IMG/VR virus record: IMGVR_UViG_3300037780_000034
Coordinates: 1 to 64,000 of that record
Length of the DNA stretch: 64,000 nucleotides
Strand: one strand, 5' to 3'
Source of the DNA: a virus
Lineage: Duplodnaviria > Caudoviricetes
Shown: positions 23,322 through 26,810 of the stretch, one piece after another
Position numbering within the stretch: the first letter of the stretch is position 1
How the letters are laid out: each line of letters opens with the position of its first letter
The notes under the pieces: model-generated
The model's database searches: none
Told to the model about the DNA's origin: nothing
The model's input: only the letters and a program-made list of their open reading frames with translations
Translations under genes and position numbers: made by a program

Positions 23322-23861
23322 TTATGATTCTCCATATTTGGTTATCAACTGTTCACGAGTATCATACGATATTCCACGCAATGATGCAAGCCATTGTGAA
23401 AACGAAATTTGATTTCCATTTTCATCAATCCATCCAGTGTTATGAAACTTTTCTGCTCTCCGAAGATAACGCCGTTCACGCTTCTCACGCTGCCGCTCAC
23501 GGGCATTCAGCGACCTTTCTACCACGACCCCTTCCATAAAGTCTTGGACTGTCTGCGACCCTCTGCGCGAATTACAGGAGTGACACGCCATTGCGAGATT
23601 TTCCCAATCATCACTTCCGCCTACTGAACGCGGAATGATATGCTCAACCGTTGTTGAATTCTTTTTTCCACGTTCTTCAGTCGTATGACATCCACACCAG
23701 CAACATTTCCAGTTTTGTGATTCACTCAGCCTTGTGCGAATATATACCCACTTTGCATTTTTGTATGCAAGCTTTGCACGAAGTATAGAATCAGTATAAA
23801 TTTCCTTCCATTGTTTCAGGGAAGGAAATTCATTGATAACAGTAGGAACGTGATATTTCAT
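23322..23861 (-). CDS. HNH endonuclease
   Basis: CCWCG..TVEHIIPRSVGGSDDWENLAMACHSCNSRRG. Confidence 0.85.
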   Translation of the reverse strand: MKYHVPTVINEFPSLKQWKEIYTDSILRAKLAYKNAKWVYIRTRLSESQNWKCCWCGCHTTEERGKKNSTTVEHIIPRSVGGSDDWENLAMACHSCNSRRGSQTVQDFMEGVVVERSLNARERQREKRERRYLRRAEKFHNTGWIDENGNQISFSQWLASLRGISYDTREQLITKYGES

Positions 23862-24002
23862 CTTGTGCCTCTTTTTCTTCTATACACAAGATAGCACATA
23901 CTGCAAAGCGTGTCAAACAGATTTTAATCCTACCATAGCCTTAACATCTTGTTGTCAGTCATTGGTATTTCTTTTATTTTTAAATTTTATTTTTTAACTA
24001 AA

Positions 24003-24078
24003 TTACTGCACTGACATGCACACACTTAGATCGGCAAAACATTTGCGTGTTCCAAGATAGTGACAGTCAGTGCAGTAA
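24003..24078 (-). ncRNA. stem-loop immediately 3' of tRNA(CAT)
   Basis: 13-bp perfect closing stem TTACTGCACTGAC/GTCAGTGCAGTAA. Confidence 0.45.
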
Positions 24079-24082
24079 ACTT

Positions 24083-24159
24083 TGGTAGGGGATGACGGAC
24101 TCGAACCGCCAACCGACCCGTTATGAGCGGGTAACTCTCACCAATTGAGCTAATCCCCC
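24083..24159 (-). tRNA. tRNA-Met or Ile2 (anticodon CAT)
   Basis: GGGGGATTAGCTCAATTGG..CTCATAA..GGTTCGAGTCC..ACCA cloverleaf. Confidence 0.9.
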
Positions 24160-24331
24160 AAAACTTAGTCATAAACCCAATACCCCGTAAAGGCATTTAT
24201 CTTTTACGGTCCCTTGTGGTTAGCAAGTTTGGTTTTGTTAGCAGATTACCAATCTGCTTTTTTGTCCCTTTATACCTCACCTTTGGACTGGCCAATGACC
24301 AAAGATTAGTATTGGGCTTGTGACTAAGTTT
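24160..24331 (-). ncRNA. structured RNA bounded exactly by two tRNAs
   Basis: About 23-bp terminal stem plus three internal hairpins. Confidence 0.55.
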
Positions 24332-24407
24332 TGGTAGGGATAGCGGGACTCGAACCCGCAAACTCGAATTTTAAGTTCGATATGTATACCAGTTCCATCA
24401 TATCCCC
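24332..24407 (-). tRNA. tRNA-Leu (TAA), short variable loop
   Basis: GGGGATATGATGGAACTGGTATACAT..CTTAAAA..GGTTCGAGTCCC..ACCA, 76 nt. Confidence 0.9.
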
Positions 24408-24715
24408 AAGTTTGTTGAGCAGTTTTTATTCTTGCTCAGGAACGGATGATTGCTTCTACGACCGTAAGTCTCCACAAATCATACTCTTATTCTCTCTAAA
24501 GTCTTCTCTATTTAACACTACTTATCTAAGGTTGTCTACTAACTGATGTATCAGCTTTCGATCTTCGCAGGCTCACCCTGCGGCGATACAGAGTTTGTTT
24601 TTCATCTAAGGGGTTTCCAGATTAGGTTACACTTTTTCTAGAGTTTATTACGAATTAACTTGTTTACGTGGGATCGCGGATATTAAACATATCTGGCTCA
24701 CTCTTTTGTTTCGTG
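24408..24715 (-). ncRNA. structured leader or ncRNA upstream of tRNA-Leu
   Basis: Non-coding; CGCAGG/CCTGCG inside TGTATC/GATACA stem, TGAGCA/TGCTCA stem. Confidence 0.4.
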
Positions 24716-24720
24716 CCACT

Positions 24721-24749
24721 ACCTTAACCGATTCTGGTTTTGGTGTCAA
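24721..24749 (-). promoter_or_regulatory. promoter of tRNA cassette, GANTC in spacer
   Basis: TTGACA-N17-TAAGGT; GATTC 24730-24734. Confidence 0.7.
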
Positions 24750-24805
24750 CACTGTTTTGTCTCTGGTCTGGAAGGTTTGTTTCTTCTTCGCCTTCCGTGA
24801 AACTA

Positions 24806-24834
24806 TGTATAGGTGATTCTCGCACAGTGGTCAA
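24806..24834 (-). promoter_or_regulatory. second tandem promoter, GANTC in spacer
   Basis: TTGACC-N17-TATACA; GATTC 24815-24819. Confidence 0.6.
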
Positions 24835-24849
24835 CACCTAAATCAACCG

Positions 24850-25047
24850 TTACCCGAAAAGATACCATCCGCTCACAAACCACGCCAACACAGTGATATA
24901 CATCTTTGAATTCCAAAAAGTGCGACGACCATAAAGGGCTTCTTCGAGTTTATTGACACGGCGATTCAAAATCGAATCAGCAATGATACCAACAAAAATT
25001 AATGAGCAACCAACAAAAGCCGCCCAAGCTACGATAGTTGTGAACAT
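24850..25047 (-). CDS. small membrane protein
   Basis: Two hydrophobic segments; AGGAAA RBS. Confidence 0.6.
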   Translation of the reverse strand: MFTTIVAWAAFVGCSLIFVGIIADSILNRRVNKLEEALYGRRTFWNSKMYITVLAWFVSGWYLFG

Positions 25048-25124
25048 CTTACTTTTCCTTTGTAGTTTTCTGCTTATGTAACTACTATAACATCAACAAA
25101 CCAGTTGTCAACAAGTTTTTTGTG

Positions 25125-25532
25125 TCAGTTGTAAACTTTATGAAGTAGTGTTAGCAACTCTATATTGTTGTCGTATTCACCTGTATAAATGTCTTCAACA
25201 TCTACACCTTCACAATCTAAACTATCAATAACAAACTGACAGGCAATACCATTTTCTTCACAAAACTCAGAAAACTCTCCAGAAGCTGATTCTCCTCCGC
25301 TATCGCTAACAATAGTAAGTAGTTTGCCGTCAACATTAAATACTACCGTTGCTGACGCAAAATCAGTATATTCTGGATCAGCATCAGACTCAAACATTGA
25401 CAGCCATTCATCGAGTTGTTCTTGAGTTAGAACAGCAATATAGCTATCACAGCACTCGAACACTTGTTCTAGTGTCATTTTTTCATCATCGTAATGATTA
25501 ATCACAACTTGTTGTATTGGAGTAAGCTTCAT
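25125..25532 (-). CDS. acidic hypothetical protein
   Basis: ORF with AGGA RBS. Confidence 0.65.
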   Translation of the reverse strand: MKLTPIQQVVINHYDDEKMTLEQVFECCDSYIAVLTQEQLDEWLSMFESDADPEYTDFASATVVFNVDGKLLTIVSDSGGESASGEFSEFCEENGIACQFVIDSLDCEGVDVEDIYTGEYDNNIELLTLLHKVYN

Positions 25533-26106: not shown

Positions 26107-26433
26107 TCATAAATCTTTCCTTATTTTTAAATAGTTGTTTAAATAAGTTTCTATGTTTTGTTTTCCGATTGGATTTTGACTATGAACATAAAATTGAAAA
26201 TTAATAGGAATAGATATGATTCCGTCCATATCTGCTTCTACTATCCATTTTGCGATATCATATCCAGTTTGTTCATTTTCACCAAGATCGTGATCAAAAC
26301 TTATGAATGATGGTGCAATCTTATCGTGGTCAAAAATTGCAGAAATTACTTGCATTTTTGTCCTACAAATAACCCAATCTTTGCCATCATCTGCTGGAAA
26401 TCTTTCATCATCAATGAACATATTCCATTTCAT
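26107..26433 (-). CDS. cyclic-phosphate-processing receiver domain protein
   Basis: MFIDDERFP, ISFDHDLG, GYDIAKW, VHSQNPIGKQNI. Confidence 0.7.
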   Translation of the reverse strand: MKWNMFIDDERFPADDGKDWVICRTKMQVISAIFDHDKIAPSFISFDHDLGENEQTGYDIAKWIVEADMDGIISIPINFQFYVHSQNPIGKQNIETYLNNYLKIRKDL

Positions 26434-26810
26434 TTTATGATTCTCCATTCACCGAATTCTCCATAGTAATTAATCTTTCCATCTTGATCTTCTTTATTGC
26501 GACATTCACGGATTGTCAACTCTTTTTCAATGTTGTGCTGAGTTGATACAACCACAGTTGAATATTTGCACTCACTTACCATTTGTAATTGCGCAACAAT
26601 TGGTCCCATTCCAGCAACAATAGAAAATCCCAATGCTATAACAAATATAAAAGGAAGATATTTTGTTGTAGTAAAGATAACCGGACTGGCAGATACAATA
26701 ACTAAAACAATTATGTATGGTATAAAAAGCAACATATTGTCAAAGACTAAAACCCCGCGTGTTAGCTGAAATAATAGTTCAGCGCCCCAAATAGAATAAT
26801 CACGATACAT
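26430..26810 (-). CDS. membrane protein
   Basis: Two TM segments; start uncertain. Confidence 0.55.
   Translation of the reverse strand: MYRDYSIWGAELLFQLTRGVLVFDNMLLFIPYIIVLVIVSASPVIFTTTKYLPFIFVIALGFSIVAGMGPIVAQLQMVSECKYSTVVVSTQHNIEKELTIRECRNKEDQDGKINYYGEFGEWRIIK

Follow-up and report, generated by a model that had tools for sequence, protein, structure and literature searches.

Phage tRNA clusters are now viewed as counter-measures to host defences that cleave tRNAs. The non-tRNA RNAs encoded among them are, to our knowledge, still unexplained, 50 years on in the case of the stable RNAs of phage T4 (species 1 and 2, or rnaC and rnaD) and likewise for the later GOLLD and ROOL. The two T4 species derive from the tRNA operon by tRNA processing and vary among T-even relatives, and their function is not known (PMC2330249). 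GOLLD env-38 lies downstream of a tRNA-Met (10.1101/2024.12.08.627333). Here we analyse bases 1-64000 (64,000 nucleotides, called the window below) of a linear 317,722-bp IMG/VR virus record, IMGVR_UViG_3300037780_000034, which is estimated to be 85% complete. On its minus strand the window carries an isolated pair of tRNA genes, tRNA(UAA) and tRNA(CAU), with a 172-nt spacer between them and a 76-nt hairpin (the 3' element) behind the second. Judged by analogy, spacer and 3' hairpin resemble a known kind of RNA, the small RNAs of phage tRNA operons. Both are real structures, conserved in a few related phages, and neither matches a known RNA family. The initial annotation had proposed three candidate non-coding RNAs at this place. 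Spacer and 3' hairpin withstand the comparison, each with helices kept through compensatory changes in one homologue, but the third candidate, the leader, does not.

Orthologous cassettes were compared in eight lineages, that of the window and those designated L088, L096, L099, L100, L101, L111 and L116. They have in common the order small membrane protein, long non-coding leader, tRNA(UAA), spacer, tRNA(CAU). The minimum free energy (MFE) of the window spacer is -60.2 kcal/mol (z score -6.86), which none of 200 shuffled sequences equalled, and all three hairpins named for this 172-nt segment in the initial annotation are present in the MFE fold. The ends of the segment pair in a closing stem of 11 + 12 = 23 bp with one C x A mismatch, extending from the base after the CCA of tRNA(UAA) to one base before position +1 of tRNA(CAU). 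Length, mismatch and the run from tRNA to tRNA are as had been predicted, except that the stem includes G-U pairs rather than a single one. It ranks first among 74 inverted repeats within 300 nt across the window, and the spacers of the main tRNA cluster of the same phage, compared in the same way, have z scores of only -3.2 to +0.3. On the tRNA-sense strand the helices hold several G-U pairs and a single C x A, the one mismatch that would become G-U if the other strand were read; such a distribution would favour an RNA read together with the tRNAs.

The spacer of L099 (162 nt) is homologous to that of the window. Its MFE fold has the helices in the same order: closing stem, hairpin, GGG/CCC helix bearing a hairpin, small hairpin and last hairpin, and forcing the common small hairpin upon the window spacer costs only 1.4 kcal/mol. 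With the helix alignment placed by hand and these two full spacer sequences only, 25 base pairs were compared: 12 are unchanged, 3 differ on one side and 10 on both, and each of the 10 double changes still pairs. In two of the three one-sided differences, one partner is unpaired in the window. By contrast with these changed helices, the unpaired AGGUAUAAAGGGACAAAAAA is identical at 20 of 20 positions and the unpaired UAACAAA(A/C)CCAAAC at 13 of 14, so that an A-rich junction makes up the invariant core of the spacer. Interior and core are thereby common to lineages whose HNH endonucleases, encoded downstream, are only 52% identical. We regard this as good evidence that the spacer forms a real RNA structure. 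In L096 the spacer is a 51-nt hairpin (19 bp), essentially the closing stem of the window minus its interior, with the first nine and the last nine bases identical and one C:G pair swapped to G:C. Because L096 keeps the closing stem without the interior, the two appear to be separable modules.

The 3' element begins 4 nt after the CCA of tRNA(CAU). It had been described as 76 nt closed by a perfect 13-bp stem, and folding recovers both (MFE -34.8 kcal/mol, z score -5.5), with further helices inside the outer stem; it is sixth among the same 74 inverted repeats. Its homologue behind the tRNA(CAU) of L096 is 123 nt long and has one extra hairpin. The outer stems of the two copies have six identical pairs followed by two compensatory changes, and two more such changes occur in the apical hairpin (GCAAA/UUUGC against GGAAU/AUUCC), which gives four compensatory pairs in total; helix P3 is also common to both. 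The internal loop ACAC/CGA and a 10-nt 5' motif, CUGUCACUAU, are identical. The element is missing from the cassettes of L088, L116 and L099. One 13-nt word of the 3' element has further occurrences in the genome; it was considered as a motif and rejected, as these lie in unrelated coding contexts. We suggest from these comparisons that spacer and 3' hairpin are RNA-level modules of the tRNA transcript and under selection.

Table 1. Features of the cassette and its surroundings, in window coordinates
Feature	Position	Strand	Basis or remark
Type A inter-tRNA structured RNA (spacer)	24160-24331	-	fold z -6.86; homologue L099:7165-7326
Spacer closing stem P1	arms 24308-24331 and 24161-24184	-	encloses four helices
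Spacer unpaired core	24258-24277 and 24227-24240	-	invariant in comparison with L099
3' stem-loop element	24003-24078	-	fold z -5.5; homologue L096:3483-3605
tRNA, anticodon UAA, 76 nt, CCA encoded	24332-24407	-	ARAGORN and Rfam, 62 bits
tRNA, anticodon CAU (elongator Met or Ile2 type), CCA encoded	24083-24159	-	ARAGORN and Rfam, 63 bits
Promoter-like box P1	24806-24834	-	-35 TTGACC (24834-24829), -10 TATACA (24811-24806), 17-nt spacer with GAATC
Promoter-like box P2	24721-24749	-	-35 TTGACA (24749-24744), -10 TAAGGT (24726-24721), 17-nt spacer with GAATC
Mini-ORF a, 8 codons, MFNIRDPT-stop	24664-24690	-	behind Shine-Dalgarno-like GAGTGAG
Mini-ORF c, 10 codons, stop codon in loop of invariant hairpin	24573-24605	-	weak coding signature
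Invariant 15-nt hairpin, 5-bp stem, loop GUGAG	24567-24581	-	identical in 8 of 8 lineages
Pre-tRNA hairpin UGAGC...GCUCA, conserved A-rich loop, 8 nt before tRNA	24416-24438	-	8 sequences
Remnant of deleted gene, 10 codons ending in nonsense codon	23930-23962	-	matches C-terminal end of 116-aa ORF of L096
Promoter of HNH gene	23888-23916	-	promoter scan 10/12
HNH endonuclease gene	23322-23861	-	Pfam HNH E 3e-12, PHROG HNH families

The leader had been taken for a structured RNA of about 300 nt, a view that the analysis does not support. Region 24408-24730 has a z score of +0.15, 56 of 100 shuffles fold as well, and RNAalifold on seven full-length leaders yields a covariation term of only -0.43 kcal/mol. 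What all eight lineages retain of the leader is promoter boxes, small hairpins and short open reading frames (mini-ORFs) rather than a fold. Of the tandem promoters announced in the initial annotation, both boxes exist and are conserved in relatives, although the consensus scan called neither. Box P1, including the GAATC before its -10, is found in L096, L099, L100 and L101, and box P2 in all aligned relatives; a start at the latter would give a leader of about 300 nt, and the terminator scan called no terminator between promoter and tRNAs. Because the 15-nt hairpin does not vary, it offers no covariation evidence. The pre-tRNA hairpin is 100% paired in its eight sequences, with a compensatory change in two of five pairs, against 8-38% for slid controls.

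In seven relatives, ORF a reads M-[IF]-[KN]-I-R-[DA]-[SG]-P-stop; its stop position is kept by way of TAA, TAG and TGA, and variation falls mostly on third codon positions. ORF b (MKFMFKSRDQP-stop) stands behind a conserved GGAG box, and its last eight codons are paralogous to ORF a. Its variable sites are distributed 1/1/5 by codon position, with five codons that change only synonymously versus one amino-acid change and with four different Arg codons. ORF c ends ..A-G-stop inside the invariant hairpin in 7 of 8 lineages (variable sites 1/4/3), and neither the window nor L096 has ORF d (15 codons). Shine-Dalgarno-like boxes before the mini-ORFs are conserved, and most of the mini-ORFs end R-D-x-Pro-stop. 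Peptide-level conservation together with a ribosome-binding site, as in leader-peptide attenuators, is found in ORFs a and b. The region thus seems better explained as a translated regulatory leader, whose mini-ORFs of 8-15 codons show coding-type variation. In the window it is about 200 nt shorter than elsewhere and holds one hybrid copy of the a/b unit, which would fit a deletion between the paralogous a and b units. Arrest peptides often end in proline, and a ribosome stalled at the TnaC stop codon hides a Rho site (PMC8450073). RNAalifold also showed that in L088, L099, L100, L101 and L111 the invariant 15-mer can pair over 10-11 nt with the 3' end of ORF a, situated about 300 nt upstream of it (alignment columns 49-59 with 363-373). 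This pairing is an alternative to the local hairpin and its pairs never vary; three of them are broken in L096, and only about three can form in the window as read by eye.

The source is a jumbo phage from a pond metagenome. Pond metagenomes hold DNA near-identical to the record, the G+C content of the latter is about 30%, and for its large terminase the identity is 55% with the enzyme of Pseudomonas jumbo phage PA5oct and about 50% with the one of Agrobacterium phage Atu_ph07. Its genome has 24 tRNA genes, 22 of them clustered at 137-150 kb, the other two being the isolated pair studied here. Relatives were reached by three routes. Firstly, a search with the terminase turned up fragments of related phages in IMG/VR. 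Secondly, the HNH endonuclease encoded downstream has homologues on contigs of JGI, ENA and Logan assemblies. Thirdly, a pattern derived from the leader gave one further metagenome contig and two viral contigs; in JGI metagenomes it hit one true cassette (L111) and, by chance, six places in coding DNA. The flanking proteins of 135, 132 and 419 residues found no relatives in IMG/VR, nor did the protein neighbouring the L099 cassette. Homologues of the 65-residue upstream protein were tried as a further route and lie on contigs without a cassette. A blastn search of the 1-kb region against the phage GenBank collection returned tRNA matches only.

Neither element could be assigned to a described family or found elsewhere, in keeping with the initial annotation, which had not recognised them. 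At gathering scores, Rfam 15 reports only tRNAs in the window and in five related loci. No family in it, including GOLLD, ROOL, HEARO, tmRNA, YrlA and the self-cleaving ribozymes, reached its gathering score. With E raised to 10, non-tRNA matches in 23800-25200 stay at or below 20 bits versus cut-offs of 40-90; the best one in the relatives is YrlA, at 26.8 bits versus 69 and overlapping a tRNA T arm. Exact-pattern scans with the spacer stem, the spacer core and the 3' element gave no matches in IMG/VR and GTDB genomes. A covariance model of the spacer core detected no further copy in the phage genome, in 21 related records or at other loci; weak matches of covariance model R1 at record 230333-230425 and in L093 were discarded as A-rich chance matches. 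A search of the phage genome for antisense targets of the invariant cores found nothing beyond chance matches of 11-14 nt.

How might the two elements act? The explanation that we tentatively prefer, at a rough probability of 0.45, is that they are released as small RNAs which work through their invariant cores. When tRNAs mature, RNase P makes its cut at +1, and 3' ends with an encoded CCA are formed by an endonucleolytic cut and subsequent trimming. An RNase P cut at +1 of tRNA(CAU), combined with normal 3' maturation of the two CCA-encoded tRNAs, would free both spacer and 3' hairpin. Because they sit directly against tRNA ends, such release, analogous to that of T4 rnaC/rnaD, is plausible. 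The fully paired ends of the freed RNAs would shield them against exonucleases, as in the T4 species 1/2 RNAs, and the A-rich junction of the spacer and the ACAC/CGA loop would be the surfaces that bind a protein or an RNA partner. The role of decoys for RNA-sensing defences or nucleases, offered in the initial annotation, would be a purely conjectural special case of this explanation. More speculatively, the mini-ORFs of the leader might sense translation and tune transcription into the tRNAs. As a whole, the region reads as an early accessory operon with a sigma-70-type promoter and the two tRNAs, in a small clade of freshwater jumbo phages.

Several points weigh against this explanation. 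With one diverged homologue per element and a hand-placed alignment, the covariation carries no statistical weight. The closing stem of L099 has only 8+2 bp (8-10 bp) and does not abut the tRNAs. The closest sister lineages are without the spacer interior (L096) or without both elements (L088 and L116), and therefore the phage clade does not need them. No partner protein was identified, and the record, 85% complete, has neither a Ro60/TROVE gene nor a phage RNase III. Finally, the mini-ORF of the window ends P-T-stop and not P-stop, and it is the only one left of two paralogous mini-ORFs.

Possible as well, though we consider it doubtful, is a pure cis role on the tRNA precursor. The spacer stem would bring the 3' end of one tRNA close to the 5' end of the other, insulate the folding of the tRNAs from the inserted sequence and offer a double-stranded entry to host RNase III, for which 23 bp is long enough, and the 3' hairpin would serve as operon terminator or as a barrier to 3' exonucleases; the pieces cut out would be waste. 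The same spacer site holds unrelated long near-perfect stems in other lineages (19 bp in L096, 23 and about 33 bp in L101, about 30 bp in L111), which suggests selection for the stem itself. The spacers of L111 (107 nt) and L101 (228 nt) have a common long hairpin of another sequence family, and their stems differ by one compensatory swap. (This other family lies at L101:4387-4614 and L111:10969-11075, with near-perfect stems of 23-33 bp and a conserved apical sequence.) The HNH gene downstream has its own promoter, and a run of U follows the 3' element in L096 (tail CUUUUUAUUU), so that a weak terminator role of the 3' hairpin may be envisaged from that tail. The intrinsic terminator scan, however, did not call the 3' hairpin of the window, where the tail UUUAGUU is a poor U-run. 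Nor does a cis role explain why 20-nt and 14-nt unpaired stretches stay identical beside ten changed helix pairs, or why the ACAC/CGA loop is invariant. It is further weakened by the short L099 stem, and in L088 and L116 about 25-26 nt of spacer suffice.

A rather unlikely alternative is that we are looking at selfish or incidental DNA, inserted at the tRNA junction and at the tRNA 3' end as hot spots where homing-endonuclease repair or recombination leaves palindromic or foreign segments, with the folds as by-products of no use to the phage. The cassette does have a patchwork history. Its tRNA(UAA) is closest to that of L100, its tRNA(CAU) and spacer interior to L099, and its leader (75% in the 3' part), stem P1, 3' element and HNH gene (77%) to L096; it therefore appears to be assembled from modules with different histories, which fits recombination among co-infecting relatives. 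From these comparisons, spacer and 3' element would be accessory, mosaic modules. The insertion idea draws on this mosaic of L100-, L099- and L096-like parts and on the variability of the spacer site, with lengths of about 25-26, 51, 107, 162, 172, 228 and 554 nt among the lineages. The 554-nt version, in L100, has on its opposite strand an ORF of 155 residues (L100:4065-4532, minus strand) that weakly matches HNH_3/HNH; beyond this inserted ORF come a 20-bp palindrome and a new promoter serving the second tRNA. The nuclease SegB, encoded in the T4 tRNA cluster and recognising tRNA gene sequence, is a precedent (PMC2330249).

The idea also draws on L097, whose HNH protein is 98% identical. There a 100%-identical 3' element, with HNH gene, lies directly behind a different tRNA-Met, namely the one found at 139709-139785 in the main cluster of the window phage. 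The junction is exactly at the common CCUACCA end and recurs in a unitig of the independent run X4. Because synteny 3' of the HNH gene continues in L097, a genome rearrangement explains the junction equally well as a nuclease cassette docked at tRNAs. The cause may be that two tRNA-Met genes, in opposite orientation and about 115 kb from each other, recombined or bounded an inversion, and not that a small cassette moved. The rearranged span is L097:438-1125, compared with record 139116-139785 and window 24003-24082. Against insertion stands that the 318-kb genome has each element only once, that 21 related records have neither, and that no target-site duplication flanks the spacer. Compensatory divergence of helices around invariant cores is the mark of long purifying selection on RNA and not of recent transfer, and the G-U pairs favour the RNA sense strand.

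Hardly probable is a minigene mechanism, in which very short ORFs in spacer or leader sequester or report tRNAs as peptidyl-tRNA, tied to RNA-repair and Pth-like genes. Minigenes of 3-8 codons inhibit translation through accumulation of peptidyl-tRNA, which Pth counteracts (PMC2490762). Leader mini-ORFs of 8-15 codons with a coding signature, an aligned UUG/AUG in the spacer loop in frame with a conserved UAA, and neighbouring genes for RNA ligase, a cREC_REC protein, YqeY and a borderline PTH2 are all in its favour; but the Shine-Dalgarno-like GGGA of the spacer is too far from the start (12-13 nt), a hairpin sequesters this start and the four residues lack conservation, while the leader mini-ORFs end on sense codons (Pro; Thr in the window) that mismatch the downstream tRNAs. 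The loop in question is that of the central hairpin, with UUG in the window (24250-24239, minus strand) and AUG at the same aligned position in L099 (7233-7247), the UAA following four codons on. It may be a coincidence or a 4-codon minigene. We would likewise give little credence to a self-regulating counter-defence unit, in which the mini-ORFs are a translation-stress sensor that raises tRNA transcription and the spacer RNA is a decoy or sponge for a host RNA-targeting factor, in company with the RNA ligase, cREC_REC and Pth2-like genes. Ribosomes would then be stalled by host nucleases or by tRNA depletion, the mini-ORFs would respond by raising transcription of replacement tRNAs, and the A-rich junction of the spacer RNA would bind and neutralise a host defence or repair factor that targets RNA.

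By its gene content, the setting of the cassette points to RNA repair and the upkeep of translation. Products of the early region around it include an RNA ligase with an OB domain, a protein with a cREC_REC domain, YqeY and a borderline PTH2 (22.5 bits versus a cut-off of 23). The cREC_REC gene (cyclic-phosphate-processing receiver) is found about 1.7 kb upstream of the cassette (window 26107-26448, minus strand; L096:1535-1903). An HNH gene is near the cassette in most lineages, with homologues beside the tRNA pair in L088, L096 and L100-L106; none was seen adjoining the pair in L099, L111 and L116. Between 3' element and HNH gene, L096 has an ORF of 116 residues, of which L097 holds a decayed copy and the window only a remnant.

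As for the tRNAs themselves, the supposed tRNA-Leu does have the anticodon UAA, but at only 76 nt it is without the long variable arm of a normal bacterial tRNA-Leu; the tRNA-CAT of the initial annotation was called as tRNA(CAU) by both programs listed in Table 1. Nearest to the former is a 77-nt form in L100 (84%), and the same site holds 82-94-nt forms in other relatives; the latter is 90% identical to its closest counterpart, in L099. Short UAA tRNAs of 76-77 nt without the long arm also occur at L100:3985-4061 and L093:1421-1497, and a relative, G006, has short and long forms in tandem. A canonical 94-nt tRNA-Leu(UAA) is encoded at 139874-139967 of the window phage. Since this phage encodes a TilS-like PP-loop enzyme (record 79789-80274, PF01171, E 4e-32), at least one of its four CAU tRNAs (24083, 139116, 139709 and 140824) is probably a lysidine-modified tRNA-Ile2. 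Directly 3' of the CAU tRNAs of G006 lies a gene in which a PP-loop-like motif, SGGxDS, was recognised by eye. A tRNA with anticodon CUA (amber suppressor type) is present in the main cluster (record 138544-138617) and another in L099 (2764-2847), which may hint at TAG recoding in part of the genome. On a 924-nt contig from another metagenome (run X4, record 12), a tRNA differs from the window tRNA(CAU) at 2 positions (compared stretch 24081-24160). Its flanks are wholly different and G+C-richer, and the tRNA may belong to the host or to another phage. Finally, a second conserved non-coding motif, AATGACT..CAAAGG..GTGTTAAAAACCT.GTGGTGA..AACCAC, lies 3' of tRNA-Met genes in several lineages: at record 139240-139310 in the main cluster, L099:7440-7510, L100:4790-4870, L097:555-625 and in L101-L105. 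It is absent from the window cassette.

The locus adds two compact, previously undescribed RNA motifs with clear invariant cores, which are open to pull-down and mutation. Its modular mosaic provides a natural series for the role of the spacer, from no insert over a bare stem to the full element. We found no earlier description of an operon that encodes only tRNAs and yet has peptide-coding mini-ORFs in its leader; if these do regulate tRNA supply under translation stress, this would be a new use of leader-peptide control.

Among known systems, two comparisons were abandoned: a MITE-like or palindromic mobile element, with a single copy in the 318-kb genome, no IMG/VR or GTDB matches and no direct repeat flanking the stem, and a Y-RNA bound by Ro, with no TROVE gene in the 85% complete record. 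The leader recalls TnaC-type attenuators in its short conserved ORFs with ribosome-binding sites, most of them ending Pro-stop, within a long leader. Unlike in TnaC, the downstream genes are tRNAs and not proteins, the window copy ends P-T-stop, and the peptides are far shorter (TnaC has 24 residues, with Pro24). T4 SegB recognises tRNA T-loop sequence and drives co-conversion and inheritance of the tRNA region (PMC2330249). As there, a nuclease gene stands beside tRNA genes in a region that is mosaic among relatives; SegB is of the GIY-YIG type, whereas the window enzyme is HNH and a conserved neighbour in most lineages, not a clear presence/absence insertion.

In the RNase III processing stems of rRNA and tRNA operons and in 23S intervening sequences, the ends of the insert pair in a duplex of about two helical turns. 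The spacer is alike in that flanking functional RNAs are brought together and the insert could be cut out. A duplex of about 20 bp is found in the window (23 bp with one mismatch) and also in L096, L101 and L111; the stem of L099, the only full homologue, is too short at 8+2 bp, and invariant unpaired cores would not be expected of such stems. GOLLD and ROOL are, like the window elements, phage-encoded RNAs of unknown function, often near tRNA islands. They measure 500-800 nt or more and have Rfam models, in contrast to the 76-172 nt found here, and neither gave a match in the window or its relatives even at E up to 10 or 0.1.

The T4 rnaC and rnaD RNAs resemble the window elements in arrangement. 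They measure 119-139 nt and are placed head-to-tail with tRNA genes, rnaD and rnaC 1 and 6 nt behind tRNA-Arg and each other. In sequence, the similarity does not exceed chance words of 7-14 nt (blastn-short). The folds differ too: rnaC ends in a tRNA-like T arm, which the window elements do not have, and rnaD is not exceptionally stable (z score -0.8), unlike the latter. Unlike in T4, one window element sits between two tRNAs, closed by a 23-bp stem. What the two loci have in common is their organisation: spacer and 3' hairpin, like rnaC and rnaD, are contiguous with tRNA genes, on the same strand and in what reads as one transcription unit.

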